From: an uncultured virus (IMG/VR IMGVR_UViG_3300035136_000035) | Taxonomy: Duplodnaviria; Heunggongvirae; Uroviricota; Caudoviricetes | DNA length: 20,000 bases | Virus record (IMG/VR): IMGVR_UViG_3300035136_000035 | Direction: 5' to 3' (one strand) | Shown here: positions 1 to 16,887 of the stretch, piece by piece | Numbering within the stretch: the first letter of the stretch is position 1 | Layout of the letters: each line of letters opens with the position of its first letter | The notes under the pieces: generated by a model | Databases searched by the model: none | Told to the model about the DNA's origin: nothing | The model's input: only the letters and a program-made list of their open reading frames with translations | Program-made: the position numbers and the translations under genes

Positions 1-1
1 T

Positions 2-274
2 GTTTTAACTGCAAAAGAAGATGACAACAAAGTATCCTGGACAGAAGGTGCTTCTTTAGCACTTAAGTATGGTGGAGATGCTTTTAATTTTTTTAAATCT
101 CTCCCGGAAGTAGGAAATGAAATTGCTGATATTGATTCAGCAGAAGGAGAAGAAGTAGCAACTGCTATTGAAGGATTTTTCCCGAATAATCCAAAAGCCA
201 AAGAAGGTGCAAAGAAATGTATTCAAGCTGCTATTTTGATGAAAGAAGGTTTGACTGAATTGGTTGGAAAGTAA
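2..274 (+). CDS. Partial hypothetical protein (5' end outside window), ...VLTAKEDDNKVSWTEG...GLTELVGK
   Basis: Hand-translated open frame from base 2 to TAA at 272-274, followed by a terminator hairpin. Confidence 0.75.
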   Translation, partial: VLTAKEDDNKVSWTEGASLALKYGGDAFNFFKSLPEVGNEIADIDSAEGEEVATAIEGFFPNNPKAKEGAKKCIQAAILMKEGLTELVGK

Positions 275-291
275 AATTCATTCATTTTATT

Positions 292-319
292 AATCCCATC
301 TTTTACGATGGGATTTTTT
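292..319 (+). terminator. Rho-independent terminator
   Basis: 9-bp stem AATCCCATC (292-300) / GATGGGATT (307-315), 6-nt loop, T run after it, just downstream of a stop codon. Confidence 0.75.
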
Positions 320-342
320 ATATCATAATTTAAATTATAATC

Positions 343-1020
343 ATGAAATTATCTATATCAAAAAATAAAATTATAGTTGGTATTATTTTATTATTATTAA
401 TAAGTAATGGCTTATTTTTTAAAATGTACAGAAAACAAGTAAAGACTAAAAATTCTATTAGAAATAATTATATAGCAATTACAGACAGTCTAAAAATATA
501 TAAATCTAAATCTGGTAATTATTATGTCCAGGCTAAAGAATTAACATTTCGTGTTCGGGAATTAAAGGAAACTGTTAATAGTAAAGATTCATTATTATCA
601 TCAATTCATTTTTCAATAAAAGACAAGGATAAACAAATCAGGACATTGAAAGATTTATTATACGTATATATAGAAAATGAAGGAAAAGGAGAAGGAAAAC
701 TAGAAGAAGTTAAACAAGGCATAGGTACTGATTATGGGTTTGAAATATCAGAAGAAAAATGCAAAGAATTAATCATTGATGATGGATATTTAAATTTACA
801 GGCATTAATTTGTATTGACCAAGAAAATTCTCCTTATTCATATACCGATAATATATATGTAGAAGTAATAACAGATGTATATAGAAAGCCAAATAAAAAT
901 GGCAAACAAGTAATTATTCCTTTCAGGTGGTTCAGGAAATGGATTGGCCGTACTACTGTATCTTCACAAAATCCTAATTCACAAGTAAAATCAGCTACTA
1001 AAGTAAATATTATAAAATAA
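343..1020 (+). CDS. Membrane-anchored coiled-coil protein, possibly a lysis accessory (Rz/spanin-like)
   Basis: N-terminal hydrophobic helix IIVGIILLLLISNGLFF followed by a coiled-coil-like segment. Function is inferred from architecture only. Confidence 0.45.
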   Translation: MKLSISKNKIIVGIILLLLISNGLFFKMYRKQVKTKNSIRNNYIAITDSLKIYKSKSGNYYVQAKELTFRVRELKETVNSKDSLLSSIHFSIKDKDKQIRTLKDLLYVYIENEGKGEGKLEEVKQGIGTDYGFEISEEKCKELIIDDGYLNLQALICIDQENSPYSYTDNIYVEVITDVYRKPNKNGKQVIIPFRWFRKWIGRTTVSSQNPNSQVKSATKVNIIK

Positions 1021-1031
1021 TTATAAACTTT

Positions 1032-1075
1032 TTATACAAATTTGTATAATTGAATTAATATTTTACTTATCTTTG
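1032..1075 (+). promoter_or_regulatory. Bacteroidetes-type promoter with overlapping 18-bp palindrome (candidate operator)
   Basis: TAnnTTTG -7 element TATCTTTG at 1068-1075. TTTG at 1041-1044 (23-nt spacer, longer than typical). Perfect palindrome TTATACAAATTTGTATAA at 1032-1049. Confidence 0.55.
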
Positions 1076-1110
1076 TATATAGTTTTTTCATAGGGTTATT
1101 TGATTTAGTT

Positions 1111-1281
1111 AGTTCTTTGACAATCTGTATGAAAAGATGCATATCATCAGTAGATACAAACGAATAGCTTGAGCGATTGAGATAAGCCCCTCACAATATT
1201 TGTAATGGAGTGAGCATCGTAAATAAAAAATAGGCAAATCAAGACAAACGTCCCTGTACAAATTCTACCATATAGATTGTC
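1111..1281 (+). ncRNA. Candidate structured 5' leader or ncRNA preceded by a boxA-like motif
   Basis: AGTTCTTTGA at 1111-1120. GACAATCTGTATG (1119-1131) pairs with CATATAGATTGTC (1269-1281), 13 bp including one G:U. Short internal stems are also possible. Confidence 0.4.
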
Positions 1282-1296
1282 TTTTAAATTAAAATT

Positions 1297-1524
1297 ATGG
1301 ATAATAAAGAATGGGAAAAAATAAAAAAAGAAAGAGAACAGAAAATTAATAAATTTGCAAAAGAATTAAAAAAATTAATGAATAAACATAAAATTACTTT
1401 TGCAGAAAATGAGCAGTATGATGGACATGAAAATTATTGTGGTAGTGATTTATATTTCGCGGTAGACGGAGAGATATATTGGAGTAAAATGGTTGCAGAA
1501 ATATTAAATGAATTATATGAATGA
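1297..1524 (+). CDS. Hypothetical protein
   Basis: ORF track; aaaattATG start; first gene of the rightward operon. Confidence 0.7.
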   Translation: MDNKEWEKIKKEREQKINKFAKELKKLMNKHKITFAENEQYDGHENYCGSDLYFAVDGEIYWSKMVAEILNELYE

Positions 1525-1855
1525 TTTTTTAATTCAACCTCATAAAATAGATGAAGATTTTTTATTAGAAATTAGTAATAAAACAGGAGTTTATTTAGAC
1601 CAAGTAAAATATATATTTAGGCATAATGTTATGTCAATAGACCAGATGGCTTTTTTACTTCGTAGAAGTAGGATGGTAATAAATTATGCTTTACAAAGTA
1701 AGATTGATTCAAAAACAAAAGAAGAAATTGAACCTTCATTAACATCAATTAATCCATTTCAAACTGCAATTAATCCAGGACAAACATTAATTGTTATTGA
1801 TGATAAATGTATTGAATTTATTAAGCATAAATTAAGAATGGTAAAATTTTATTAA
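1508..1855 (+). CDS. Hypothetical protein, possible HTH DNA-binding regulator
   Basis: Segment MSIDQMAFLLRRSRMVINYAL resembles a helix-turn-helix; weak support. Confidence 0.4.
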   Translation: MNYMNDFLIQPHKIDEDFLLEISNKTGVYLDQVKYIFRHNVMSIDQMAFLLRRSRMVINYALQSKIDSKTKEEIEPSLTSINPFQTAINPGQTLIVIDDKCIEFIKHKLRMVKFY

Positions 1856-1856
1856 C

Positions 1857-2201
1857 ATGAAAGAATTAATATTAGGGAATTACAAAATAGAAAGTGATAA
1901 ATTTGGATTTATTATTTCAGAAAAGAAAATAAATAAAGGTCAATCTAAAAACAAAAAAAGTAATCCTGATAATATTGGTAAGGAATATTTTACTTATCAT
2001 ACTTATCATTCAAATATTGAAAGTGTAGTAACTAATCTATTAGAAAGAGGGGCAAGAGAATATATAGACGATTTAAAAAAAATGTTTTCTTTTTATGTGA
2101 AGATTAAAAATTCATTTCATAATTTTTTGGAATTAGAATTACAACGAAACATAACGTCAAAAGATAAAGCAAGTGTTTATAAAAGCACTAAAGTAACATA
2201 G
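1857..2201 (+). CDS. Phage hypothetical protein; C-terminus runs into the first attC-like site
   Basis: ORF track; the last ~16 codons lie within the element at 2149-2227. Confidence 0.7.
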   Translation: MKELILGNYKIESDKFGFIISEKKINKGQSKNKKSNPDNIGKEYFTYHTYHSNIESVVTNLLERGAREYIDDLKKMFSFYVKIKNSFHNFLELELQRNITSKDKASVYKSTKVT

Positions 2202-2227
2202 CGCATTAATTTTATACATTGTTATAC
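2149..2227 (-). repeat. attC-like site C1 (arms poorly matched, probably chimeric)
   Basis: ATAAC (2151-2155)...GTTAT (2221-2225). Right arm AATTTTATACATTGTTA (2208-2224) is identical to 2771-2787 in C3. Confidence 0.6.
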
Positions 2228-2239
2228 GCTTTTAATTAG

Positions 2240-2476
2240 GTGATTATGAATTTATTTAAGCAAAGAAAAACAACCCTATATAATGGGCAAAAAGTAAAAG
2301 AAGGCGATAAAGTATACTTCATAAATTCAGACGGTGTTAAATGTGAAGGATTAATTGAAAGAAGGCTTTTTGATTGCGTTCATTCAGATACAAATGAGAG
2401 GTTGAAAAAAGGCACATTATTCTTTTGGAACAACTCATTTAAGCCTTCTGATTATAGAAGTTTGGTTGTGTCTTAA
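2240..2476 (+). CDS. Cassette-borne hypothetical protein (ATG at 2246 is a likely start)
   Basis: ORF sits between C1 and C2. Confidence 0.7.
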   Translation: MIMNLFKQRKTTLYNGQKVKEGDKVYFINSDGVKCEGLIERRLFDCVHSDTNERLKKGTLFFWNNSFKPSDYRSLVVS

Positions 2477-2480
2477 TTGC

Positions 2481-2572
2481 ACACAAAGGACAGCGGTAAG
2501 AGTAGGCCGCTTTGTAGACTGCTCAAATTTAGTAATAGCTTTCATGCGGCTTACTTTTACCGCATGTTATAA
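2481..2572 (-). repeat. attC-like site C2 (core AAC changed to AAA)
   Basis: ACACAAA-GGACA-GCGGTAAGAGTAGGCCGC (2493-2510) ... GCGGCTTACTTTTACCGC (2546-2563)-AT-GTTA. 18-bp stem with 2 G:T positions. Confidence 0.75.
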
Positions 2573-2584
2573 ATTGTAAAAATT

Positions 2585-2740
2585 ATGGACGAATTTGAAG
2601 TACAATGTAATGAGTGCGATTGGCAAGGTTATGCACTTGATTTAGTAAGCAAAACAGCAGATTTAGACGACAAAGATTTTAAATACTGTCCTAATTGCGG
2701 GTCGGACGATATAGATGATATTGATTATGAAGATTATTAA
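2585..2740 (+). CDS. Cassette-borne 51-aa acidic zinc-ribbon protein MDEFEVQCNECDWQG...YCPNCGSDDIDDIDYEDY
   Basis: Hand-translated, absent from the ORF track. Two CxxC pairs; fills the interval between C2 and C3. Confidence 0.75.
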   Translation: MDEFEVQCNECDWQGYALDLVSKTADLDDKDFKYCPNCGSDDIDDIDYEDY

Positions 2741-2790
2741 TAACGTTGAGTATAAAATTTCGTTTTAATGAATTTTATACATTGTTACCG
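2738..2790 (-). repeat. attC-like site C3 (minimal)
   Basis: TAAC (2741-2744)-GTTGA-GTATAAAATT ... AATTTTATAC-ATT-GTTA (2784-2787); perfect 10-bp stem. Confidence 0.75.
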
Positions 2791-2832
2791 TGTCGTTTTG
2801 TGCGGTGGTAGTGTATAGCAAAATAAATAAAT

Positions 2833-3036
2833 ATGATTATAGATAATAGTAGATATTACGACACAGATGTACATTGTAGTACATGTGGAAAGGTTTACAG
2901 ACCTTCTAAAGATGCAGATATTAAAGAAAAGCTTAATGTACCTCCATTAGTTGCAAATATTTTTTGCAGCAGAGAGTGTAAAGAGAAGTACGATGAATTT
3001 TTAGAACAAAACCGAGCGGTGGCAAATGCACGGTAA
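2833..3036 (+). CDS. Cassette-borne small zinc-finger protein (CxxC...FCSxxC)
   Basis: CSTCGK and FCSREC motifs. The stop codon TAA is part of the TAAC core of C4. Confidence 0.7.
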   Translation: MIIDNSRYYDTDVHCSTCGKVYRPSKDADIKEKLNVPPLVANIFCSRECKEKYDEFLEQNRAVANAR

Positions 3037-3260
3037 CGGACAGGTATATGAGCCGTGCGGATTAACCCACGGACAATCGAACGAGGTACATAGTAATAAT
3101 TTTAAAATATTTTTTAGGGATGGAAAAATCTACAGAAACATTAGTAAAAATGATTGAATTAAATAATTCAATTAATCAGGTTAATAAAGAAAATGAAATG
3201 ACAAAAAATAACGAAACTCCAGCAACCGACAAGGCTATGCAATATGAGTCTGTGTTAGCA
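3031..3260 (-). repeat. attC-like site C4 (long loop carrying the start of the next gene; arms degenerate)
   Basis: TAAC at 3034-3037 and GTTA at 3254-3257. Each core matches its cassette partner end (9/9 and 13/14). Inner arms are only partly complementary (AGCCGTGCGG vs CCGACAAGGCT). Confidence 0.6.
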
Positions 3261-3401
3261 AACGTTTTATCAAATACAGACCATTGGTTTGACTGCAATT
3301 TGAGAGCTTTGCTTGGCGCAGAAATAGCCCTTATTAAAAAGGGGAAAAAGAAACAGATTGACAGAAAAATGTTAGCAGACTGGATTACTAACCACCTTTA
3401 A
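3120..3401 (+). CDS. Cassette-borne hypothetical protein starting inside C4 (alternative start 3198)
   Basis: Frame reads through the C4 arm as ...TPATDKAMQYESVLANV... Confidence 0.6.
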   Translation: MEKSTETLVKMIELNNSINQVNKENEMTKNNETPATDKAMQYESVLANVLSNTDHWFDCNLRALLGAEIALIKKGKKKQIDRKMLADWITNHL

Positions 3402-3409
3402 ATGTTTGC

Positions 3410-3455
3410 TAACTTGTTTATATAAACAATGAAAAATATTTCACTAATGGAAAAC
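3410..3455 (-). repeat. attI-like site of the left array
   Basis: 45/46 identical to the reverse complement of 18607-18652. Identity ends at the GTTA core. Contains the perfect palindrome TTGTTTATATAAACAA (3414-3429). The repeat is certain; the attI role is inferred. Confidence 0.6.
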
Positions 3456-3504
3456 TCTGAACAGGTAAGGAATAGAATAGTTGAACTCGTAAAAATTTAA
3501 AATT

Positions 3505-3735
3505 ATGACAGATTTAAAAAACGATATTATATTATTTAATAAGTGGTTATTCGATAATAATTTTATTCCTAATAATTCTTTTTTATGGTTTGATCACACA
3601 AAAAGTATAGATGAAATATTATTTTTTGAATTAGAAGAATTATTTGATGCATTTAACAATGGATTAACTATTGAAGAATTAATACAAAAAAAGAATAATG
3701 ATATAAAAATTTTTTTTAATAAATATTGTTTATGA
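3505..3735 (+). CDS. Hypothetical protein
   Basis: ORF track; aaaattATG start. Confidence 0.65.
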   Translation: MTDLKNDIILFNKWLFDNNFIPNNSFLWFDHTKSIDEILFFELEELFDAFNNGLTIEELIQKKNNDIKIFFNKYCL

Positions 3736-4394
3736 ATATGATAGAAAATAATTATTTAACAAATATTCCAAAAGATGTTTCAAATTATGGATTATGCAAA
3801 GTATTTGCTGTAAGGAGAGAAATAATACATATAAAACATATTTTAACTGAAATATTCGTTAGAAGAACTATTGATATTGAATATTATTTAATACAATTAG
3901 ATATGTCATTATTTAGTTATATTGAATATATTACAAATAGAATTAGGAAAATACATCATTTTACAAGAAAATACTTTAATGATATTGATAAAATTATAAA
4001 GGATGATAGAGATAAATTTTTCCCTACATTGAATTTATATAAAGGATTAAATAATTGTATTGTTTTAGATTTTGATGATGTTATAACTAAAAATAATTTT
4101 AATGAACTTTATGAACTATGTTGTATAAGATCAATAGTTCATGTATGTTCAGCGAATCCTACTATTGATATTAGCTTTTTTAATAAAAGAGGATTAAGTA
4201 TTCCATATCAAATTCATTCTATGAAAGGTAAAATAAAAAAGATAAAAAGATTATTAGAGATACAAAAAAAATATGATTATGTTTTTTATGTAGATAATGA
4301 GATTGAATATTTAAAATTTGCATGGATATTTGGGATTCAAACATATCATTGGAATAACAAAGAAATAAAATATTTTTCTCTTAAAAGTAGATAA
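3726..4394 (+). CDS. HAD-superfamily-like protein (C-terminal phosphatase-like domain)
   Basis: IVLDFDDVIT (motif I DxD), VCSAN (motif II), VFYVDNEIEYLKFAWIFGIQTYHW (motif IV-like). Confidence 0.55.
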   Translation: MFMNMIENNYLTNIPKDVSNYGLCKVFAVRREIIHIKHILTEIFVRRTIDIEYYLIQLDMSLFSYIEYITNRIRKIHHFTRKYFNDIDKIIKDDRDKFFPTLNLYKGLNNCIVLDFDDVITKNNFNELYELCCIRSIVHVCSANPTIDISFFNKRGLSIPYQIHSMKGKIKKIKRLLEIQKKYDYVFYVDNEIEYLKFAWIFGIQTYHWNNKEIKYFSLKSR

Positions 4395-6857
4395 ATGAAA
4401 CCTATTTTACAAAATATTGATTTTGGTAAATTACCACCTTCTGCAATTGATATAGAATGTGCTATTTTAGGGGCTGTTTTAAATTATCCAGAATCATTAA
4501 ATGAAATAACAGATATATTAATTCCAGAATCATTTTATAAGGATGAACATCAGAAGATATATTCAGCCATATTAGAACTTGATAGGAACGATAATAAGAT
4601 TGATATATTGACAGTTCAAGAAGAATTAAGAAAAAAAAATGAACTTGAAGATATAGGCGGTCCTGTATATATAACAGGATTGATTTCAAAAGTAATATCT
4701 TCTTCTCATATATTAGAACATGCACGTATAATAAAGGAAAAATATTTAGCTAGGGAATTAATTATGATATCTTCTGAAATTAATACTATGGCATTTGATG
4801 ATTCAGTAGACATATCTGATCGTATAGATAGAGCTAATCAATTATTTGATGACTTTAATGAGTTAGCAGCCGGCAAGTCATATTTTAAACATTTAAATGG
4901 AGTCCTTAATAAAGTTATGGAAATATTTGTAAAGAGAGAGGCATTGGCAAAAGAAGGTAAATTGGTAGGATTAAGAACTCCTTTAAAGGAACTTAATAAG
5001 TTAACTGGCGGATGGAGAAGTGAGTTGATTATTATTGCTGCTCGCCCTGGGGCGGGAAAATGTCTTGGAAGAGGGACAAAGATATTAATGTATGATGGAA
5101 GTTATAAATGTGTTGAAAATATTAATAAGAATGATTTGCTAATGGGAATTGATTCAAAACCACGAAAAGTATTACAAACTTGTATTGGAATTGATCAAAT
5201 GTATCTTATTAAACAAAAAAATGGATATAATTATAGATGTAATGGAAATCATATATTATCATTAAAAGTTAGTGGAAAAGATTTTCAAAAAACGTATGGT
5301 AAATTATATAATATATCTGTTAAAGATTATTTTAATTTACCAAATAGATTACAAGATAAATTAAAAGGGTATAAAATTGGGATTGAATTTGAAGAAAATA
5401 ATGATTTATTAATACCACCTTATTTATTAGGAGTATGGTTAGCTGATGGATCATCATCAAAATCAGTAATACATAATCCAGATATAGAAATTGAAGAATA
5501 TATAAAACAATATTGTTATGAGAACAATTTTAAGTATTCAAAAAAAATATATGATTTAAAAAACTGTCCAGAACATCGGATAACTGGAGAGTATTATAGA
5601 AATTTTTTACAATTACTTAGAAAATTAAATATATTAAATAATAAACATATTCCGAAAGAATATCTTATTAATTCAAGAAAAAACAGATTAGAATTATTGG
5701 CAGGTTTATTAGATGGAGATGGTTATAGATATGGTTTTTCTTATGAAATATCTCAAAAAAGAGAAATATTAGCACAGCAAATATTATATCTGTCAAATAC
5801 ATTGGGATTTGGAACATCTATATCGCATGAAAAGAAAAGAATAAAATCGATAGACTTTGAAGGATATTATTACAGATTACATATTAGTGGAGAAATAAAA
5901 GATATTCCTTGTAGAATTAATAGAAAAAAAGCACCTAATAGAAAAAAGTTAGCTAATTATTCAACAACTTATGGTGTTGAAATAATAAAAGATAAAATAG
6001 ATTTTTATTATGGGTTTGAATTAGACGGAGATGGATTATTTTTATTAGAAGATAATACAGTAACACATAATTCTGCAATAGCATTAGCTATATCAAAAAC
6101 ATTAGCATTTGAAAATATTCCAGTCTGTATATATAGTCTTGAAATGTCTGATTATTCGTTAGGAGAAAGGCTTGTATATGCAGAAGCAGACATGGATGAT
6201 GGAGATATATATAAGGCTAATCATGGGTACATGAATGATACTTTATGGGTGAAGATTAAAAGGTCTAAAGCAAGACTCGAAAAACTTCCTATATATATTG
6301 ATGATAATTCTTGTGTAGATGTTAATTATATAAAATCTCATTCAAGGATAATGAAGAAAAAGAATCTATGTGGTATTATTATAATAGATTATCTTCAATT
6401 AGCCTCTGGTAAAAGAGAAAGAGGCAAGAGTAAGGCTGAAATGATAAGCGATATTTGCAGGGAATTAAGAACACTAAGGAAGAATTTAGACATTCCAATT
6501 ATAGTTTTAAGCCAGTTAAATAGGGAGGTAGAAAAAAGAGGAGGAGATAAAAGACCTCAATTATCAGATATAAAAGAAAGTGGAGGTGTGGAAGAAAGTG
6601 CAGATATGATTATGTTTATTCATCGTCCAGCATATTACAATGTTCCTATTGATGAAAAAGGCAATTCGACCGAAAGAATGGGAGAACTAATAATTTCCAA
6701 GAATAAGAACGGTCCTATAGATACAATAAAATTCAGTCATAATAAAAGTCTTACTAAAATAACTGATTATTTACCAATTAAAGAAGAAAAAGAACCTGAA
6801 AAGATAAAAACACAACCGGATTTATTTAAAAATAGTTTAGATGATGTACCATTTTAA
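4395..6857 (+). CDS. dnaB: Replicative DNA helicase DnaB, intein-containing
   Basis: LPPSAIDIECAILGA N-terminus, AARPGAGK|S Walker A, SLEMS, IIIDYLQL, LSQLNREVE, RPQLSDIKESGGVEESAD, ELIISKNKNG. Confidence 0.97.
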   Translation: MKPILQNIDFGKLPPSAIDIECAILGAVLNYPESLNEITDILIPESFYKDEHQKIYSAILELDRNDNKIDILTVQEELRKKNELEDIGGPVYITGLISKVISSSHILEHARIIKEKYLARELIMISSEINTMAFDDSVDISDRIDRANQLFDDFNELAAGKSYFKHLNGVLNKVMEIFVKREALAKEGKLVGLRTPLKELNKLTGGWRSELIIIAARPGAGKCLGRGTKILMYDGSYKCVENINKNDLLMGIDSKPRKVLQTCIGIDQMYLIKQKNGYNYRCNGNHILSLKVSGKDFQKTYGKLYNISVKDYFNLPNRLQDKLKGYKIGIEFEENNDLLIPPYLLGVWLADGSSSKSVIHNPDIEIEEYIKQYCYENNFKYSKKIYDLKNCPEHRITGEYYRNFLQLLRKLNILNNKHIPKEYLINSRKNRLELLAGLLDGDGYRYGFSYEISQKREILAQQILYLSNTLGFGTSISHEKKRIKSIDFEGYYYRLHISGEIKDIPCRINRKKAPNRKKLANYSTTYGVEIIKDKIDFYYGFELDGDGLFLLEDNTVTHNSAIALAISKTLAFENIPVCIYSLEMSDYSLGERLVYAEADMDDGDIYKANHGYMNDTLWVKIKRSKARLEKLPIYIDDNSCVDVNYIKSHSRIMKKKNLCGIIIIDYLQLASGKRERGKSKAEMISDICRELRTLRKNLDIPIIVLSQLNREVEKRGGDKRPQLSDIKESGGVEESADMIMFIHRPAYYNVPIDEKGNSTERMGELIISKNKNGPIDTIKFSHNKSLTKITDYLPIKEEKEPEKIKTQPDLFKNSLDDVPF
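5061..6071 (+). mobile_element. Intein (337 aa) with LAGLIDADG homing endonuclease, inserted in the DnaB P-loop
   Basis: Starts CLGRGTKILMYDG after GK and ends VTHN followed by Ser. Block B CNGNHIL; endonuclease motifs LLGVWLADG and LLAGLLDGDG. Confidence 0.93.
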
Positions 6858-6867
6858 ATTATAAATT

Positions 6868-7221
6868 ATGAAAAACAAATTTCCAAGAGTTAAAATACCT
6901 CAATTAACATGTTTTTACAGGATGGAAATAAGACAAATATATTCTGATTATATTTTATTGCCATTTTGGAAAAGATGGATAGTATCATTATTAAATCAAA
7001 AAGAAAAATATTTATCATACCGTATTGATTTGATATGTCCTAATTTTCAGAATAAATTTAAAAAGAATGATTATTTTATGATGGGCAGGCATCAATTCAA
7101 AACGATAAGTATTGAAGAAAAATTAATCCATATAAGTACTATTGTTAAGGATTTAAGTATTTTTATACTCGATATAACACATATTCATTATTCTCACAGT
7201 TTAAATATATACAAGAAATGA
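6868..7221 (+). CDS. Hypothetical protein
   Basis: ORF track; ATGA overlap with the next gene. Confidence 0.65.
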   Translation: MKNKFPRVKIPQLTCFYRMEIRQIYSDYILLPFWKRWIVSLLNQKEKYLSYRIDLICPNFQNKFKKNDYFMMGRHQFKTISIEEKLIHISTIVKDLSIFILDITHIHYSHSLNIYKK

Positions 7222-7610
7222 GTAAACTAGACATTGAAAATATTGATCCAATTGTAAAAAAAGCATGGGAATTATTAGATGAATTTAATGAAAAGACATT
7301 AATTCCTATGAAAAACAATTTAGAAATTCAATGGAATGAATTACAAAATGGTATGAAAATTGAGAATTATGATATTTCAAAAGCTAGGTATGAAAAGTTT
7401 TATAATATATATCTTAGTTGTAAAGAAGCGTTGGATGATTATATTTCTTTATTAGTATCATTTTATAATATAAAGATTCAAATAGAAAAGAGTAAAATTA
7501 AAGAAAGTGTAGAAAAAGGAAGATTATTACCAAGCCAGATTACAGTTACAAAGTCTATAATAAATCTCATGTATGAATTATTTGATTATTATGAAAGGAA
7601 AAATAAATGA
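7218..7610 (+). CDS. Hypothetical helical protein
   Basis: ORF track; ATGA overlaps on both sides. Confidence 0.7.
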   Translation: MSKLDIENIDPIVKKAWELLDEFNEKTLIPMKNNLEIQWNELQNGMKIENYDISKARYEKFYNIYLSCKEALDDYISLLVSFYNIKIQIEKSKIKESVEKGRLLPSQITVTKSIINLMYELFDYYERKNK

Positions 7611-8791
7611 AAACAGATAATTTAACATTTTATAGGATACCATTACATACTGATGCATGGTATAGATTCAGGACAACAGGCTTAACAAAAGAAGATGCGA
7701 AACAATATAATTGTCCTGTTTTTACAGGAGGTGTCGGATCTTCTGAAATAGCTACAATATTAAGGCATCCACCATCTGAAAAAGCAAGGCCAATTATTCA
7801 AGATTATTATCATTGGAAATTAGGGACTATTATACCAGATAATGAAACAACTGAATTAATGATAGGAGGATTGGAAGATGAAGAAAGGATTAAAAATAGG
7901 TGGAGATGTTATGCTGGCGAAAATGATTTTATTGATAGATATTGGAATTGGTATAATGCACCTCCAAATGAAAAAAGTAAATATATTATCAGGAATGCTA
8001 AACGTATTAATGCTTATATAGTAAATAAAAAATATCCCTGGTTATTTAGTTCATTTGATTTTTGGGCTGAAAAAAATTCTCATTCATTTGACGGAATAAT
8101 TAAACTGGAAGGTTTTCCACTTGAAACAAAAAGTACTTCTTATTTTTATATTAGAAATTTTGAAGATCAATTTCCTGATTCGTTTAACATACAAGTACAT
8201 CAAGAGATGATTATATCTGAATCTGATTATGCAGAAGTAGGATTATTAGTTGATAGGAGGTTCAGGTGTATACCAGTCGAACGAAATGAAAAGCTTTGTA
8301 ATTGGATTCTTGAAAAATCGTATGAATTTTGGCAAACAGTTCTTAAAGGCAGGGAATATCTTGTTGAAAGAAATAAAGCCTTAGAAAAAAATAACATCGA
8401 AGAATTTAATAAATTTCAGGCTTATATAGACAGTTTAGAACCATTACCGGACGACAATCCTGCTTATGAAGATTTGATCAAAGAGAGACACGTTCAAGAT
8501 ATCGAGATGGTAAAAGGAAGTATAGAAGATTACAAGAATGCTAAATTATATGATTCTATTCTTGAATATGAAAAATTACTTGGTTCTAAAAAACAATTTG
8601 CTAAAAATTTATTATTAAAAAAATTAGATGATAATAATGCAGGTCAAATTGATTTTGATAAACTAGGAAAAGTAACACATATAATAGAGGGTAAAAAAAC
8701 AAATCCTACTTTTAGAGTAAGTTTAAAAGAATCAGTAAATAAGAAATCAATAAAAGAAGAATTTGATAAAATTAATTTTAATAAATTATGA
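7607..8791 (+). CDS. YqaJ-like / lambda-exonuclease-family recombination exonuclease
   Basis: TDAWYRFR...GVGSSEIATIL, GLEDE, YPWLFSSFDF, LETKS, IQVHQEM match the PD-(D/E)xK YqaJ pattern. Confidence 0.85.
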   Translation: MKTDNLTFYRIPLHTDAWYRFRTTGLTKEDAKQYNCPVFTGGVGSSEIATILRHPPSEKARPIIQDYYHWKLGTIIPDNETTELMIGGLEDEERIKNRWRCYAGENDFIDRYWNWYNAPPNEKSKYIIRNAKRINAYIVNKKYPWLFSSFDFWAEKNSHSFDGIIKLEGFPLETKSTSYFYIRNFEDQFPDSFNIQVHQEMIISESDYAEVGLLVDRRFRCIPVERNEKLCNWILEKSYEFWQTVLKGREYLVERNKALEKNNIEEFNKFQAYIDSLEPLPDDNPAYEDLIKERHVQDIEMVKGSIEDYKNAKLYDSILEYEKLLGSKKQFAKNLLLKKLDDNNAGQIDFDKLGKVTHIIEGKKTNPTFRVSLKESVNKKSIKEEFDKINFNKL

Positions 8792-9180
8792 AAACAACAT
8801 TAACACAACAAGAATTAAGTAATATAATAAGATTTTTTAGTATGTTTTATGTTACAAATCCAATATTAATTAATGAAAATATTAATATTGATGGATTAGA
8901 AACAAATGGATTTAAATTTATAAAAAATAAACAAATTAAAGGAATTGTTGCTTTTAGTAAAGAATATATTTTAAATGGTTTAGATATATTAATAAAAGAT
9001 TATTTTGAAATAATAGATAAATATTTTGAATTAAACAAATATATCAAATCAAAAAATCAACAAACATTATTTGATGTAACGGATTCTTTTGAAAAAATAA
9101 ATAATATTAAATATTATTCAATTGAAAATAATAATGAAGATATATCATTTGATAATATTATAACAATTGAAATTAAATGA
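8788..9180 (+). CDS. Hypothetical protein
   Basis: ORF track; ATGA overlaps. Confidence 0.65.
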   Translation: MKTTLTQQELSNIIRFFSMFYVTNPILINENINIDGLETNGFKFIKNKQIKGIVAFSKEYILNGLDILIKDYFEIIDKYFELNKYIKSKNQQTLFDVTDSFEKINNIKYYSIENNNEDISFDNIITIEIK

Positions 9181-9425
9181 AAACAAAAGAATTTAAAAAA
9201 TATGAAATAATAGAAGAAATAATATATAATGATGAATATAATGAAAAAGATATAACTATAAAAGTAGAAAAAGGTGAATATCGTCTATTTGATTTTATAG
9301 TATTAAATAATGGACTTTCTACTGCTATTAAATCTATAAATTATAATAAAGAATATAATGATGTTACAATTTATAATCCATTTTGTTGCAATTTTATAAA
9401 TTTTAGTTGTTTTATTGTAATGTAA
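9177..9425 (+). CDS. Hypothetical protein
   Basis: ORF track; ATGA overlap. Confidence 0.6.
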   Translation: MKTKEFKKYEIIEEIIYNDEYNEKDITIKVEKGEYRLFDFIVLNNGLSTAIKSINYNKEYNDVTIYNPFCCNFINFSCFIVM

Positions 9426-9440
9426 TTTTTTTTATAAAAT

Positions 9441-9677
9441 ATGAAAAAAAGAGAAGTTAAATATAGATCAATGAATAATCCTGATATTGAAAAAGAAGGA
9501 TATTTTGAATATTGGGGGCAACAGGACCAGGTTTTATTAAACGAAAAAAGAGAACCATTTGGGATACAAAGAAATTTAGTAGGAGTAGTAATAGATAAAG
9601 AAACTGGAGAATCTATAATTACTTTAGTTCAAAATATAAAATTTATTGATTATGCTAAGAAAAGAACTCATAGATGA
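9441..9677 (+). CDS. Hypothetical protein
   Basis: ORF track; co-oriented within the operon. Confidence 0.65.
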   Translation: MKKREVKYRSMNNPDIEKEGYFEYWGQQDQVLLNEKREPFGIQRNLVGVVIDKETGESIITLVQNIKFIDYAKKRTHR

Positions 9678-9939
9678 ATACAGGAAAGAAAATGGGTTTG
9701 AAATATTAAGAGAATCTGATTATCCTTCATATATTAAATATGGAAAAGAAACAAAGATGTTTCGATATTTAATAGTCATTTGGTTATATAACGAGATGAT
9801 TCTAGTGAGTTGTACTTCTAAGATTAAAATAAAAGATAATGAATTTGTGAATACAAAAGCTATAAAGAAAAAACCTTCATATGAAGAAATAGAATTATGT
9901 TTTACATTTCCATTTAAAGCAAAATCATTTTTAATATAA
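9646..9939 (+). CDS. Hypothetical protein
   Basis: ORF track; co-oriented within the operon. Confidence 0.6.
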   Translation: MIMLRKELIDEYRKENGFEILRESDYPSYIKYGKETKMFRYLIVIWLYNEMILVSCTSKIKIKDNEFVNTKAIKKKPSYEEIELCFTFPFKAKSFLI

Positions 9940-9943
9940 AATT

Positions 9944-10105
9944 ATGGATGAAAAATTAAATGAAATATTAGATATTCTTCATGGATATCCTAAAGAAGAA
10001 GCAATTGATATATTAAAAAAAGCTATAAAATATGTTAATGAATATCATTATAGTGCTTTTTTAGTAGAAAATGGAGAAACAAAACCAATATTTAATATTA
10101 AATAA
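9944..10105 (+). CDS. Small hypothetical protein (53 aa, MDEKLNEILDILHGYP...)
   Basis: Hand-translated; fills the gap between neighbouring ORFs; aaaattATG start. Confidence 0.65.
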   Translation: MDEKLNEILDILHGYPKEEAIDILKKAIKYVNEYHYSAFLVENGETKPIFNIK

Positions 10106-10118
10106 ATTTTAAAAAGTT

Positions 10119-10568
10119 ATGTATAAAGAAAAAATAATCTTAACAATTTTAGGAGACCCAAAAGCACAAAAAAGACATCGACATTTTTCTAAAAAATTTA
10201 ATAATGGAAAAGAATTTTCTGGTACTTATGATCCAAGTGCTAAAGAAAAAAAAGATTTTTTATTAACTGTTTTAAATAACAAACCGGAAAAACCATTTGA
10301 ATGTCCTATTTGTATAAAATTTTATTTTCATTTTTCCAGACCAAAAAATCATTATGGAACAGGAAAAAATTCTAATAAATTAAAATCAAATGCACCTTCT
10401 CTTTGTTCAAAAAAACCAGATTATGATAATTTATTAAAATTCGTAACAGATGCTTTAAATAAAATATATTTTAAAGATGATGCACAAGTATGTACTGGTA
10501 GTTTTTATAAATATTATAGTGAGAATCCAAGAACTGAAATAATAATAATTCCTTTATATGAAAGATAA
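10119..10568 (+). CDS. rusA: RusA-family Holliday junction resolvase
   Basis: GDPKAQKRHR N-terminus and KKPDYDNLLKFVTDALNKIYFKDDAQV catalytic motif. Confidence 0.92.
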   Translation: MYKEKIILTILGDPKAQKRHRHFSKKFNNGKEFSGTYDPSAKEKKDFLLTVLNNKPEKPFECPICIKFYFHFSRPKNHYGTGKNSNKLKSNAPSLCSKKPDYDNLLKFVTDALNKIYFKDDAQVCTGSFYKYYSENPRTEIIIIPLYER

Positions 10569-10848
10569 ACATGAATTAAATGAAGAAACTGCTTTATGGA
10601 ATGCATTTCGAGAAGAAGGAAGAAAAAGAACTATAAAAAAACAAAATGATGCTAAAGAATTATGTGAGTTATTATGTGGAGATTTAGGGATAGATTTTAA
10701 ATTAATACATCTTTGGCATTTCAGATTATCTCAAAATGGATTTCAGATTGATATATTTCCAACCAGACAACGGTATCATATAATTAACTCAAATCAAAGA
10801 GGAAGATATAAAGATTTACAAGGATTTATTTACTCTAAATTTAAATAG
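10558..10848 (+). CDS. Hypothetical protein
   Basis: ORF track; overlaps the rusA stop. Confidence 0.7.
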   Translation: MKDKHELNEETALWNAFREEGRKRTIKKQNDAKELCELLCGDLGIDFKLIHLWHFRLSQNGFQIDIFPTRQRYHIINSNQRGRYKDLQGFIYSKFK

Positions 10849-10849
10849 G

Positions 10850-11173
10850 ATGAAAAAAACAATTTTATTATCAGTATTACTTTTTACAAGTATTTTTATT
10901 TATGCTCAATATCCTGTAATACATATAGGAATAGTTGATAGCATTCGTCAAGTAAAACTTGACAGTATATGTCAAATAAGGGGACATGTAATAACTAGTT
11001 ATTGTACAAGTATGGAAGCAAATTGTCCTCCATATTATTTAGATTATCCAGACAGTACGGTAATGGTAATTCCTAATTGTAACAAGACAGAATGTATATG
11101 TCAGAGATGCGGGAGAAGTATATTACTACCTGCTAAAGAAAAACGATATACTATTTGGAGAAAAGAAGAATAA
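10850..11173 (+). CDS. Putative exported cysteine-rich protein
   Basis: MKKTILLSVLLFTSIFIYAQ looks like a Bacteroidetes signal peptide ending A|Q; 7 Cys including CICQRCG. Confidence 0.6.
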   Translation: MKKTILLSVLLFTSIFIYAQYPVIHIGIVDSIRQVKLDSICQIRGHVITSYCTSMEANCPPYYLDYPDSTVMVIPNCNKTECICQRCGRSILLPAKEKRYTIWRKEE

Positions 11174-11191
11174 TTTAATTTTAAAAAAATC

Positions 11192-11365
11192 ATGGAAATT
11201 ATACTATGGATTTTATTTGGATATTTAGTACAAGCTGTTATTTGTGCTATAATTAATATTTTAGTAGCTACAAGAATACCTAGAAGTGGTATTGATTTTT
11301 TAAGGTTAACATTTTTGCCTTGGTTATTATTGCACTTAGATGAAGTTAAACTAAAAAAATTATAA
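11192..11365 (+). CDS. Small membrane protein (57 aa, MEIILWILFGYLVQAVICAIINILVA...)
   Basis: Hand-translated; fills the gap; hydrophobic. Confidence 0.6.
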   Translation: MEIILWILFGYLVQAVICAIINILVATRIPRSGIDFLRLTFLPWLLLHLDEVKLKKL

Positions 11366-11366
11366 T

Positions 11367-11672
11367 ATGAACAAAGAAACTAAAAAATTAGAACAAGAAC
11401 CTGCATTTCCTTGTTTAGAATATAATGAACCTGGATATGGTGATGCTATAATTATTACTATAAATGGTGAAAAAAATATAATTCCATTTAAAGAAGGAAT
11501 GTCAAAAAGATTTTATGCAGCTTGTAAGGCTATGCAAGGAATATTATCAAATTCTGAAGCGTATAAAGTTATAACAGAAGATGCTGATAATCAAAATAAA
11601 TGTTGGGGCGAAATGATAATAAAACAATCGTATCAATTTGCAGATGAACTTTTAAAACAGGAAAACGAATAA
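11367..11672 (+). CDS. Conserved phage hypothetical protein
   Basis: PAFP...GMSKRFYAACKAMQGIL...SYQFADELL matches a widespread phage motif (PAFP..GMxLRDYFAAKAMQG..AYxxADAML). Confidence 0.75.
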   Translation: MNKETKKLEQEPAFPCLEYNEPGYGDAIIITINGEKNIIPFKEGMSKRFYAACKAMQGILSNSEAYKVITEDADNQNKCWGEMIIKQSYQFADELLKQENE

Positions 11673-11674
11673 TA

Positions 11675-11875
11675 ATGGAAAAGATATCTAAAAATTTATA
11701 TAAAGGAGAACTTATAACAAATCCAATGGATATTAAAAGACTTGTAGAAGAAAAACGAAGCGTATACATTGAACCTCATTTAGGAGTATGTCCTGCTGCT
11801 GTAATATTACATTGGCAGTTTGCTATAATTTATAGAATGATTTTAAATAATCAATTATATTATACTTATAAATGA
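11675..11875 (+). CDS. Hypothetical protein
   Basis: ORF track; ATGA overlap with the next gene. Confidence 0.65.
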   Translation: MEKISKNLYKGELITNPMDIKRLVEEKRSVYIEPHLGVCPAAVILHWQFAIIYRMILNNQLYYTYK

Positions 11876-12174
11876 ATGATATTAAAGAAATAATATATCA
11901 TCAAACGCCTAAATTATATGAGCGATATAAAAGACGAATTGTATTTGTATATAACAATATGGATTTATTATTAAAATTAGATAAACTTAGAAAAGAAAAA
12001 AAATGGGCGGCTTTTACTTTAAAAAATCCTTTAATAAAAAAAATCGCAAATAAAGCTAGACAATATATTGGTTATTCAAATAAAACATATGATGCTGATA
12101 TATGTTGGACATTATATATGATGGCTTTAGATTTACATAGAGAAAATATTAAATATCAACTTATAAACAATTAA
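11872..12174 (+). CDS. Hypothetical protein
   Basis: ORF track. Confidence 0.65.
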   Translation: MNDIKEIIYHQTPKLYERYKRRIVFVYNNMDLLLKLDKLRKEKKWAAFTLKNPLIKKIANKARQYIGYSNKTYDADICWTLYMMALDLHRENIKYQLINN

Positions 12175-12178
12175 AACA

Positions 12179-12529
12179 ATGGAAATAAAAACAGAATATT
12201 TTTCTTTAAATAAATTTGATATAATAACTATACCAAAATCTTCTGTTTTTATAGTAATTAAAAAATCAGATGAATTTAATCTTACAATAATTCCTTATAA
12301 AAATTTTAGATTTAAATGGATGTATTATATATATTGGTTTTTTATAAATATAAAAGAAATAATCAATAATTATATTACATGTATTAAATGTATTTTCAAT
12401 GATATTAGATATAAATTATTCAGAAAAAAAATTCAGAATAAGTTTAAATCTATACTAATAGATATTGAAAAATCATTTAAACAATATATTTTAAACGAAG
12501 TATTTAAAAATAATAACAAATTAAATTAA
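12179..12529 (+). CDS. Hypothetical protein
   Basis: ORF track. Confidence 0.6.
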   Translation: MEIKTEYFSLNKFDIITIPKSSVFIVIKKSDEFNLTIIPYKNFRFKWMYYIYWFFINIKEIINNYITCIKCIFNDIRYKLFRKKIQNKFKSILIDIEKSFKQYILNEVFKNNNKLN

Positions 12530-12535
12530 TAAATT

Positions 12536-13789
12536 ATGGAAAATACAACATCATTAGTAAAAAAAACAAGTAATGCACCTGCATTTTTAGAAGATTCATT
12601 TCAAACACTTGAAAAAGCATTAAATTATGCTAATTTATTATTAGAAAGTAAACTTGTTCCTGATCATTTTTATGAAAAAGGAAATGATAATAAACCTGAT
12701 TATACAAAAGGAAAACCAGGTGCATTATTAATGGTAATGCAACATGGTATGGAATTAGGATTTACTCCAACACAATCATTACAACAAGTAGTTCCTATAA
12801 ACGGATTATTAACAGTAAAAGGAGATGGATGTAAAAGTAAAATACTTCATTCTGGATTTTGCGAATTATGGAAAGAAGAAGAAACAGGTTCTATTGAAAA
12901 AGAAGATTATTCTATAAAAATAACTTCAAAAAGAAAAGATACAGGAGAACAAATAAGCCGTATATTTAGTGTTGATTTGGCTAAAAGGGCTGGATTATGG
13001 ATAACTAAAGAAAGATTATCAGGGCAAAATGGTTATAAATGGAAATTAAGTGCATGGTATAAATTTCCTGATCGTATGATTAGATATCGGGCATTAGGAT
13101 TTATAGCTAGAGATTTATATCCAGATGTATTACAAGGATCCTATATGTTTGAAGAAGTAAGAGATAATCCTGATGAAATGTCAACTACTATAACCACTTC
13201 TGATGGAAATATAATTCAATTACCTGAATCTAAAACAGAACATTTAAAACAAATATCAGATAATAAAAGTTCTTCAATTGTAGAAGATTTGGAAAAGAAA
13301 GATGAATTAATAAATTCTCAAAAAGAAAATCAGAATAAAAAAGAAATCAAAGAAGATAAACCTAAAAGAAGGGGAAGGCCAAAAAAAGACGAATCAATAG
13401 AAAATAAAGCCGTAGACGAAAAAAAACAAGAAGTGGATACAATTACTAATGAAGAAAAAAAAGATGAACCAGTGCAGTCTGAATTATCCACAGACAATAA
13501 ATTATTAGGTAAATATGGTAATCAAGGGGAAGTCTTTGTTAAAAATCGTATAGAAGTTATTAAAGAAAAATTAGCAAACATATTACCTTTACAGGAAAAT
13601 GGAGAAAGGGGATTTAGTGAAGTAAATGATTTATATTTTACCTTAACAGAAGATTTAGGAATTTCAGAAGAAAAATTTTCAAATATAAAAGTTGAGGTTC
13701 TTGAATTTGATCAATTCACTACATTAGAAGATATATGTTTTAAAGGAACAGAAGAACAGATATTGAAATTAATTGAAAAAGCTAAATAA
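12536..13789 (+). CDS. RecT-like single-strand annealing protein with a long charged C-terminal extension
   Basis: GMELGFTPTQSLQQVVPING, FSVDLAKRAGLW, AWYKFPDRMIRYRALGFIARDLYPDVLQG..EE; same operon as the YqaJ exonuclease. Confidence 0.8.
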   Translation: MENTTSLVKKTSNAPAFLEDSFQTLEKALNYANLLLESKLVPDHFYEKGNDNKPDYTKGKPGALLMVMQHGMELGFTPTQSLQQVVPINGLLTVKGDGCKSKILHSGFCELWKEEETGSIEKEDYSIKITSKRKDTGEQISRIFSVDLAKRAGLWITKERLSGQNGYKWKLSAWYKFPDRMIRYRALGFIARDLYPDVLQGSYMFEEVRDNPDEMSTTITTSDGNIIQLPESKTEHLKQISDNKSSSIVEDLEKKDELINSQKENQNKKEIKEDKPKRRGRPKKDESIENKAVDEKKQEVDTITNEEKKDEPVQSELSTDNKLLGKYGNQGEVFVKNRIEVIKEKLANILPLQENGERGFSEVNDLYFTLTEDLGISEEKFSNIKVEVLEFDQFTTLEDICFKGTEEQILKLIEKAK

Positions 13790-13947
13790 TGATATTCAGT
13801 AAAAGACTTAAATTAGAAAAAGAATATTTTGAATGGATAAAAGGAACGCAAATAAAAGATTGTCCATTTAATGTAATATCATTTTTAGATATAAAAGGAT
13901 ATTTAATAAATAAACCAAAACATGAAAACGATATTCATACATGGTAA
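13789..13947 (+). CDS. Small hypothetical protein (52 aa, MIFSKRLKLEKEYFEW...)
   Basis: Hand-translated; TAATG overlap with the RecT-like stop. Confidence 0.55.
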   Translation: MIFSKRLKLEKEYFEWIKGTQIKDCPFNVISFLDIKGYLINKPKHENDIHTW

Positions 13948-14197
13948 AACAAAATCAGGGCGCCGGTTTACAATAGCCGGTGTTCCTGATAAAGATAAAT
14001 TAAAGATAGGATTAGCAATATGCAATCCAAAAGACCAGTTTTGTAAAAAGATAGGAAGAAGTATTTCAGAAGGAAGGGCTAAAAATAAAACTTATTATTT
14101 TGAACTTTCTAATGATTTTAAAGAAAATATTCAAATAGTTAGATATTTTTCAGAAGTAATAATAAGAGAATGGAATTATCCATATAAAAAACGATAA
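13922..14197 (+). CDS. Conserved phage hypothetical protein
   Basis: GLAICNPKDQFCKKIGRSISEGRA matches a common phage GxAxCxPxDxFxKxxGRxIA motif. Confidence 0.7.
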   Translation: MKTIFIHGKTKSGRRFTIAGVPDKDKLKIGLAICNPKDQFCKKIGRSISEGRAKNKTYYFELSNDFKENIQIVRYFSEVIIREWNYPYKKR

Positions 14198-14198
14198 T

Positions 14199-15813: not shown

Positions 15814-15828
15814 CCGGGCTTAATTTTT
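15796..15828. terminator. Bidirectional rho-independent terminator
   Basis: Stem AAGCCCGG (15800-15807) / CCGGGCTT (15814-15821) with an A run on the left and a T-rich run on the right, between convergent stop codons. Confidence 0.85.
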
Positions 15829-16551: not shown

Positions 16552-16571
16552 TGGTTAAATGGTTTAAAAAT

Positions 16572-16874: not shown

Positions 16875-16887
16875 TTTAATTTAATTT

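Follow-up and report, generated by a model that had tools for sequence, protein, structure and literature searches.

Positions 2194–3461 of a 20 kb stretch of DNA from an uncultured phage (IMG/VR record IMGVR_UViG_3300035136_000035; the whole 20 kb is called the window below) are probably a partly decayed row of mobile gene cassettes, belonging to an integron-like site-specific recombination system of uncultured phages whose hosts are probably Bacteroidota. In this row, array 1, small open reading frames (ORFs) alternate with hairpin elements that run from TAAC to GTTA. The same architecture recurs in 11 other records, one hairpin family carries compensatory changes in its stems, the hairpins fold better in the gene-sense strand and one unit has been gained or lost at the cores between the window and a related strain. 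The system is integron-like, yet it differs from canonical integrons in enzyme, in strand and in the unit that moves.

Hairpin modules and complementary cassette ends

An original prediction, made from the letters of the window, had described four small ORFs alternating with TAAC/GTTA elements. The alternation is present, but two of the four elements have decayed, and array 1 is a worn example with two intact hairpins (2484–2569 and 2741–2787), one mutated core and one truncated hairpin (Table 1). The block stands out in composition, with 25–47 % G+C across 2250–3450 vs 14–25 % in the flanks; the window as a whole is AT-rich (~20 % G+C). The mutated core closes gene module 1, where alignment places CAAA (2484–2487) at the position at which relatives carry TAAC, leaving the E2 hairpin without its 5′ TAAC. 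The stop codon of ORF 2833–3036 is the TAA of the core. What had been read as a single element between TAAC 3034 and GTTA 3254 is instead a truncated hairpin, an AT-rich stretch and a piece that does not fold. The AT-rich stretch (3091–3208) is probably phage backbone. As GTTA 3254 lies inside ORF 3120–3401, this ORF is a composite that starts in AT-rich sequence and reads through into a module richer in G+C: ~30 initial codons are backbone of 18 % G+C, and the remainder, from GTTA 3254, is module of 38 % G+C. An internal ATG at 3239 would yield a product of 54 aa.

The bases next to the cores had been described as complementary across each gene, and a script recovered all three pairs: GTTACCGTG/CACGGTAAC (2784–2792 and 3029–3037) at 9/9 positions, GTTAGCAAACGTTT/AAATGTTTGCTAAC (3254–3267 and 3400–3413) at 13/14 and GTTATAAA/TTAATAAC (2566–2573 and 2737–2744) at 7/8. 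The single mismatch of the second pair, G vs A, is a T.G wobble on the + strand. Across the window and its relatives, 28 of 47 distinct GTTA sites have at least 5 further complementary bases at the downstream TAAC, compared with 70/2140 (3.3 %) when flanks from other sites are set at the same places; in the window alone the count is 4/7. Pairing reaches ~14 bp, roughly GTTA-nnnn-CAGTAC vs GTATTG-nnnn-TAAC, and where cassette ends recurrently mismatch, the sense strand has a T.G pair. The ends GTTG...CAAC of one cassette show the fourth core base altered on both sides at once; the fixed core is AAC/GTT only. In the scheme favoured here, the private ends of a gene module would be complementary because both derive from one palindromic site. 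Chance complementarity in AT-rich DNA is scarcely credible as the source of these ends. It can draw on the small excess in the whole window, where 5 GTTA/TAAC pairs with at least 5 extra complementary bases are present vs 2.2 in shuffles, a count that is weak alone (4 of the 5 fall within the two arrays described here). However, chance is refuted by the cognate-end test and by the relatives, and it is also opposed by the recurrence of E2, the deletion in strain X3 and the covariation of E3, all described below.

Constrained DNA folding gives hairpins of 47–127 nt with one layout: TAAC pairs with GTTA, often an unpaired spacer follows, then a stem of 10–23 bp and a variable loop. Spacers that stay unpaired are asymmetric in the sense strand, with 4–5 nt in the 5′ arm and 2 nt in the 3′ arm. 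The structural hallmarks of attC are found here: imperfect hairpins closed at their base by AAC/GTT cores, with an unpaired spacer and a variable loop. Inverse cores flank every module, and ORFs begin within the upstream hairpin, in differing reading frames. A two-arm layout of R box, ~6-nt spacer and stem appears only in the folded strand; no double-stranded two-arm Xer site was seen by eye in the printed array sequences, no pattern search having been made for one. The predicted folds of the hairpin stems contain no single-base bulges of the extrahelical-base type.

The folding energy of each element as DNA was compared with 200 shuffles. The E2 region (2480–2575) has a z-score of −3.84, with 0/200 shuffles folding as well. 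The E3 region (2735–2793) is marginal by energy (z −1.67; 13/200 shuffles as good), and z is +0.69 for the E1 region (2188–2230), which has no fold beyond shuffles, −0.29 for the E4 region (3028–3095) and +1.23 for the piece at 3204–3263, which does not fold. Five members of the E3 family have the loop TCGTTTTAATG in common and differ in their stems. Both-sided changes affect 8 of 12 stem pairs, and 0/500 shuffles reach the observed covariation score.

Among 41 distinct hairpins, 35 fold better in the gene-sense strand and 6 fold worse in it, a few probably false sites having been left in this set. AAC is followed by G in 33 of the 41, and the same G follows AAC on the recombined strand of attC as described by Bouvier et al. 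2009 (PMC2727003). This G and the excess of G.T pairs (98 vs 41 in the antisense strand) both point to the sense strand, in favour of a unit made of a hairpin and its downstream gene.

The loop (T)CGTTTTAATG caps minimal hairpin modules at 2741–2787 of the window and in L020, L103, L092 and L086. It also caps 29-nt ‘empty gene modules’ of the form GTTA-n5-loop-n5-TAAC in L062, L075 and L099. The ends of one such empty module are those of window module 4 (3254–3413), where 132 nt separate them; in L062 and L075 these ends recur with no gene in between. On another reading, each gene module is a small transposon, its terminal inverted repeats being GTTAnnnn...nnnnTAAC and its targets the hairpins: inverted ends flank each gene, and ‘empty’ forms GTTA-n5-TCGTTTTAATG-n5-TAAC occur. 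However, the inner bases of the repeats vary by module, which a transposase would not tolerate. No target-site duplications were apparent by eye in the printed module flanks, where they were not counted, and Pfam scans of the window ORFs (14 + 23) returned no transposase family, the ORFs of related arrays lying outside these scans. Such transposons are a very improbable source of the arrays.

Related arrays and gain or loss of one unit

The 11 other records, ten viral contigs and one contig of a metagenome-assembled genome (MAG), share the alternation of AAC...GTT hairpins and GTT...AAC genes, and every array-bearing record has small co-oriented ORFs with TAAC...GTTA elements between them. An 18-mer of E2 is present in 6 IMG/VR contigs of 36–38 % G+C and in one MAG contig of 31 % G+C. 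Among genome contigs, 5 of 7 matches to this 18-mer were due to chance and lay in high-GC genes. A looser search with the motif GCTAACGNNNGGCGGTA gave 114 loci, mainly chance matches in coding DNA; a fold filter kept 22, which, judged by eye, added 4 array-bearing contigs.

In all-against-all blastn alignments, similarity between contigs is limited to the hairpin elements, beginning after TAAC and stopping at GTTA. The same hairpin is found ahead of unrelated genes, which diverge at GTT, and one gene body has different hairpins on either side in different records. Records G003 and G005 have a stretch of 407 nt in common, 95 % identical, which runs from TAAC to TAAC. The array-bearing MAG contig (L020/L140; contig 36, 10.8 kb, 31 % G+C), from a MAG labelled Gammaproteobacteria, carries a C5 methyltransferase and the remnant of a recombinase besides its cassette array, and it is apparently phage DNA sorted into that bin. 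Methyltransferases are also located in or next to the arrays of L002, L005 and L007.

A search for inverted repeats revealed a second array in the window itself. Positions 2485–2543, which are 59 nt of E2, match 19416–19474 with 97 % identity, and 3410–3461 match 18601–18652 with 94 % identity. Array 2 lies on the minus strand, from at least 20000 down to 18601; it comprises three hairpins and as many genes, and it closes with the end junction of array 1. Hairpin A and positions 7303–7429 of L013 share a start codon and a common 20-aa leader, MKNE..GNGVLPCV, and the proteins that follow the leader split precisely at the GTT core. Hairpin C has the lowest energy per base among the 36 TAAC..GTTA candidates in the window. 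ORF 18650–19012 has 12 homologues, all unnamed, one of them in an Aureibaculum MAG. Both arrays close with ...TAAC directly followed by the shared junction, with no hairpin beyond the last gene. A third copy of the junction is present in X1/X2, two of the sequencing runs introduced below; the end-junction sequence TTGTTTATATAAACAATGAAAAA had 0 matches among viral contigs. The repeated junction is a candidate attI-like landing site.

Searches for relatives of the phage backbone gave little. The proteins of 3726–4394 and 1508–1855 had no confirmed relative among viral contigs, the former none among metagenome contigs either. Window positions 1–8000 gave just 3 short blastn matches in GenBank phages, all in the DnaB intein region, and hairpin E2 gave no match there. 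Presence and absence of units were therefore taken from sequencing runs, namely the assembled contigs of four wetland metagenomes (X1–X4), two of which may be where this DNA came from; parts of the window thinly covered in X1, X2 or X4 were excluded from the evidence.

The strain in X3 is 98–99 % identical to the window, with 30 other letters over 1–1861 and 1 over 18354–19473. One X3 contig (1951 nt) joins 19473 to 19876, with 125 nt past the joint, and skips 402 nt (19474–19875). The skipped stretch extends from the TAAC of hairpin A (19878–19875) to the TAAC of hairpin B (19475–19472), and the unit is hairpin A with the 108-aa gene, i.e. an upstream hairpin plus its gene. In X1 and X2, one contig each joins 19470 to 19874, skipping 403 nt in phase with 5 shared letters, and X4 has a form with 40 other letters in place. 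Array 1 is also different in X3: agreement of its contigs with the window stops at 1861 and resumes at 3447, the sequence between is unlike, and 2669–3335 are uncovered.

A TAAC at 1853–1856, which is also the stop codon of ORF 1508–1855, lies 5 nt before the X3 break at 1861, and the variable block may therefore begin one gene before 2149, where the original prediction had the array start. The next ORF (1857–2201) matches a replication-initiation PHROG. Outside the arrays, X3 differs by a 463-letter replacement (9946–10557), a 76-nt deletion (13504–13581) and a 124-nt deletion (18229–18354). Two further joints, 2569 to 3411 in X1/X2 and 2487 to 18661 in X3, could not be placed.

Comparison of unit content and breakpoints among relatives, proposed beforehand as a check, thus found one unit missing from core to core, in array 2 rather than array 1. 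A fixed gene order, which had been named as contrary to cassettes, was not seen, as X3 lacks the unit and differs in array 1; breakpoints unrelated to the cores had been named likewise, and those of the one missing unit fall at cores. The proposal that accessory genes are gained as site-specific integron-like cassettes is supported by the X3 deletion and by the core-bounded similarity between unrelated phages. The original prediction had named circles recombining between G and TT and had suggested looking for breakpoints between AA and C; the lost unit is cut between AA and C on the gene-sense strand. A classical cassette is a gene with its downstream attC, crossing over between G and TT on the sense strand, and neither the X3 deletion nor the G003/G005 unit has this form. 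In L012, the last cassette ends ...GCATAA followed by T, not C, and the crossover therefore falls between A and C. The 12 letters GCATAATGTATA at this array end may resemble the junction of arm and central region in bacterial dif sites. It is concluded that both cores have served as crossover points over evolutionary time, the single event observed in a population being AAC to AAC.

The hairpins could also be regulatory or act at the RNA level (mRNA stabilisers, processing sites or translation signals), doubling as short homologies for RecT-type recombination. T4-type phages carry cassettes of an early promoter joined to a stem loop between genes, which are shuffled by homology. G.T pairs in the 41 hairpins number 98 in the sense and 41 in the antisense orientation, favouring the transcribed strand, and start codons and a common leader peptide lie within hairpin loops. 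Additionally, the window has a RusA gene and, in one ORF of the + strand operon, a RecT match below threshold (21.0 bits, cut-off 24), and similarity between phages is restricted to the hairpins. However, linker homology gives no private complementary ends (28/47 vs 3.3 %), leaves the coordinated GTTG...CAAC change unexplained and does not predict a deletion between the cores of two otherwise unlike hairpins. No + strand terminator was found, and promoter-like sites in 1800–3600 number 7 vs 10.9 in shuffles; none of the + strand sites lies within a hairpin of this interval, and the T4-type pairing of promoter and stem loop is accordingly absent from it. Regulatory hairpins of this kind appear improbable.

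Recombinase, host and genomic context

Scans of 37 window ORFs (14 + 23) found no tyrosine recombinase, and the phage would therefore need an enzyme encoded beyond the 20 kb or supplied by its host. In 2 of the 11 array-bearing records, a tyrosine recombinase of 270 aa is encoded directly downstream of the array on the same strand, and a third has a decayed recombinase C-terminus at the same relative place. The linked recombinase is colinear, end to end, with the solved XerC-like chain 4a8e. Against the solved IntI4 chain 2a3v it aligns in two pieces, with 37 residues where IntI has 85. The two intact proteins score 162 and 152 bits against TIGR02249 (cut-off 265). These alignments and sub-cut-off scores make the recombinase Xer/IntI-like without the insertion, which is described as essential for integron function by Smyshlyaev et al. 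2021 (PMC8138268). A complete integron, with an IntI carrying its insertion, is found neither in the window nor in the related arrays.

The hairpin modules (AAC...GTT) resemble attC sites in having a paired R box and an unpaired spacer, followed by a long stem with a variable loop, and they alternate with gene modules (GTT...AAC). In the proposed mechanism, a tyrosine recombinase of the Xer/IntI lineage would bind a hairpin folded in the gene-sense single strand. One strand would be exchanged between AA and C, and the product would be resolved by replication. The same scheme is known for integron attC sites and for CTX-phage, which host XerCD integrates on a folded single strand (PMC3442271).

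Several points weigh against a cassette system of this kind. A clear fold advantage over shuffles is seen in E2 only, while E1, E4 and 3204–3263 fail, and 3 of the 7 GTTA sites in the window have no cognate partner. The extra unpaired bases sit on the 5′ arm of the sense strand; in classical attC, according to Bouvier et al. 2009 (PMC2727003), extra unpaired bases on the 5′ arm mark the non-recombined strand, and by that rule the sense strand would be the non-recombined one, in conflict with the other strand evidence. Breakpoints occur at both AAC and GTT cores, and therefore one fixed crossover point cannot explain everything. In the population data, the X3 joint skips 402 nt instead of 403 and is off phase by one base, and the X1/X2 joints have 25 letters on the side ending in a repeated hairpin, so that they could belong to another locus. 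The runs comprise assembled contigs only, in which circles and rare forms could not be seen. Eight of the 11 array-bearing records have neither a recombinase gene nor a remnant, and of the five that are at least 90 % complete, four lack a recombinase (G001, G003, G007 and G008). The linked recombinases lack the IntI-specific insertion and fall under the curated NCBIfam cut-offs for IntI, XerA, XerC and XerD. Lastly, the 11.5-kb contig that carries the recombinase of a Marinilabiliaceae MAG (see below) has no cassette array.

Some of these points would suit an ordinary cluster of attC sites without an integrase (CALIN), in which classical sites are recombined by a host IntI, the unit is a gene with its downstream attC cut between G and TT, and the phage is a mere carrier. 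The cores, the hairpin layout and the complementary ends fit attC, most of the array-bearing records encode no recombinase themselves, and the extra unpaired bases lie on the sense 5′ arm, as on the classical top strand (Bouvier 2009, PMC2727003). IntI1 recombines attC sites of virulent phages, one of them from a Polaribacter phage, as reported by Qi et al. (PMC9892861). Such a cluster is nonetheless unlikely. The unit lost in X3 and the G003/G005 unit are an upstream hairpin plus a gene, TAAC to TAAC, ORFs start inside the upstream hairpin in differing frames, and in both window arrays the last gene is followed by TAAC but by no hairpin. Moreover, the sense strand is the better folder in 35/41 hairpins, the predicted stems show no extrahelical-type single-base bulges and the linked recombinases are without the IntI insertion. 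A partly decayed row of integron-like cassettes with its own polarity is the favoured reading of array 1.

The hosts of the phage of the window are likely to be Bacteroidota, to judge from the Aureibaculum homologue of ORF 18650–19012 and from the following matches. A 36-nt spacer in an array of clustered regularly interspaced short palindromic repeats (CRISPR) at about position 4000 of L023, a contig of a Marinilabiliaceae MAG, matches the 5′ part of an E2-family hairpin and lies between repeats ATTTCAATTCCAGTATGGTTCGATTGAGAG; Tandem Repeats Finder confirmed the array. The match shows that a host targets the conserved hairpin itself. The same MAG has a recombinase homologue of 47 % identity. 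The nearest recombinases in isolated phages (34–37 % identity) are from flavobacterial phages of Polaribacter and Cellulophaga, namely the ‘integrases’ of Polaribacter phages Freya and Leef and of Cellulophaga phage Ingeline (L145). The Freya records have leading regions of unequal length: the integrase gene begins at position 50 of Freya_1 and at position 4147 of Freya_10, where it is preceded by one hairpin and one ATTGTTGCTAAC box, with no clear array.

Beyond the arrays, the window has the appearance of a phage's replication and recombination region (Table 1). The DnaB helicase (4395–6857) contains an intein with Hint and LAGLIDADG domains. On the minus strand, ORF 16888–18105 encodes a 405-aa product with a DUF6745 domain and NNLGNNLW repeats; within it, 12-nt units are repeated in tandem over ~390 nt (17542–17935), and the run contigs break at this repeat. 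Rfam and transfer RNA scans of the window gave nothing relevant to the arrays, the single weak Rfam match being to a long non-coding RNA family at 32–230, far under its cut-off. Pfam and PHROGs assigned no family to the seven cassette ORFs; the sole match, to a zinc ribbon, is that of ORF 2585–2740 at 21.5 bits, below the cut-off of 27. In tblastn searches of the cassette proteins against 140 loci, the hairpin-encoded leader was the only match.

Table 1. Modules of the two arrays and flanking operons, with positions in the window
Feature	Position	Strand	Details
E1, degenerate hairpin module TAAC...GTTA, 31 nt	2194–2224	+	3′ half AATTTTATACATTGTTA only; common to E3
Gene module 1	2221–2489	+	ORF 2240–2476, 78 aa, no family
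E2, intact attC-like hairpin of the widespread 86–88-nt family	2484–2569	+	18-bp stem with two G.T pairs; GTTA 2566–2569
Gene module 2, GTTATAAA...TTAATAAC	2566–2744	+	ORF 2585–2740, 51 aa
E3, minimal 47-nt hairpin module	2741–2787	+	TAAC-5 nt-10 bp stem-loop TCGTTTTAATG-stem-3 nt-GTTA
Gene module 3, GTTACCGTG...CACGGTAAC	2784–3037	+	ORF 2833–3036, 67 aa
E4, truncated hairpin	3034–~3090	+	5′ half only; TAACGG..GCGGATTAA type, whole in L020 and L065
Stretch of 18 % G+C, ~120 nt	3091–3208	+	Holds start of ORF 3120–3401
Gene module 4, GTTAGCAAACGTTT...AAATGTTTGCTAAC	3254–3413	+	ORF 3120–3401 runs into module
Array-end junction	3410–3461	+	TAAC, then 16-bp palindrome TTGTTTATATAAACAA, then start of small ORF; repeated at end of array 2
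Array 2 hairpin A, 128 nt	19751–19878	−	Holds ATG 19811 and 20-aa leader; 87 % identical to L013 7303–7429
Array 2 gene module	19472–19754	−	ORF 19485–19811, 108 aa; missing with hairpin A from X3 contig
Array 2 hairpin B, E2-family copy with intact TAAC	19391–19475	−	z −1.63, 10/200 shuffles
Array 2 gene module, GTTAGCAAC...GTTGCTAAC, 9/9	19091–19394	−	ORF 19109–19360, 83 aa
Array 2 hairpin C, 50 nt	19045–19094	−	z −0.86
Array 2 last gene module	18649–19048	−	ORF 18650–19012, 120 aa; ends complementary only as GTTAA/TTAAC
Array 2 end junction	18601–18652	−	Copy of 3410–3461
+ strand operon	343–15813	+	Intein-split DnaB helicase (LAGLIDADG endonuclease), RusA gene, ORF with sub-threshold RecT match
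Minus-strand operon	15827 to window end	−	Includes HU protein

Relation to integrons and Xer modules

Integrons and 17 integrase-less attC clusters have been reported in phages, virulent ones included, by Qi et al. 2023 (PMC9892861), who found that IntI1 recombined 5 of 6 phage attC sites tested (for CALINs see also Cury et al. 2016, PMC4889954). By structure only, both window arrays have the makeup of a CALIN (at least two attC sites and no integrase nearby): array 1 has 2 intact and 2–3 decayed sites, array 2 has 3 sites, and there is no integrase in the 20 kb. The likeness to integron cassettes and CALINs extends to the AAC/GTT cores, to imperfect hairpins of 47–128 nt with R box, spacer, long stem and variable loop, and to hybrid sites, hence complementary cassette ends, with one family of sites on unrelated genes. 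Likewise, the arrays consist of small co-oriented ORFs, and the recombinase gene, where present, lies at one array end. Unlike in integrons, the linked recombinase is without the IntI insertion and the gene-sense strand is the better folder. The unit gained or lost is a hairpin with its downstream gene, and a gene may have its start codon and leader in the loop of the hairpin before it. The predicted folds of the phage hairpins also show no bulged extrahelical bases, and the R box is ~14 bp long, of conserved-variable-conserved makeup with a fixed T.G pair.

In Xer modules, as put forward by Lin et al. 2020 (PMC7399989), the recombination site would form as a hairpin across inverted sites; exchange of one strand is then followed by resolution through replication. 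The Acinetobacter plasmid Xer/dif modules of that account have in common with the phage arrays inversely oriented sites around modules, alternating module types, an Xer-type enzyme and a proposed hairpin route. Unlike Xer/dif modules, the arrays show by eye no 11-6-11 double-stranded site, the site apparently being complete only upon folding; the hairpins are long structured modules themselves, and the carriers are phages, not plasmids. In the CTX-phage system (PMC3442271) a whole filamentous phage enters the chromosomal dif site, whereas small cassettes would be exchanged here within double-stranded DNA phages. A literature search that excluded supplements found no phage cassette family with an Xer-like enzyme and this polarity.

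Integrons are the standard example of a gene-capturing device, and the system bears on their origin from Xer recombinases and on the source of new cassettes. A cassette system would explain the sharing of accessory genes among phages of unlike composition (20 % and 36 % G+C). Experiments could draw on two defined hairpins, on the repeated junction as a possible landing site, on two intact recombinase genes of related contigs and on samples that contain both the form with and the form without the cassette. Having the site logic of integrons, an Xer-like enzyme, the opposite gene polarity and start codons within its sites, the phage system offers a testable intermediate. More tentatively, it might be a distinct phage-borne sister of the integron, in which an Xer-type recombinase without the IntI insertion (or a host Xer) acts on sense-strand hairpins that lie ahead of genes and supply their start codon and leader, and in which both module types are exchangeable. 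Such a system would stand between Xer/dif modules and integrons, as the way in which phages of Bacteroidota trade accessory genes.

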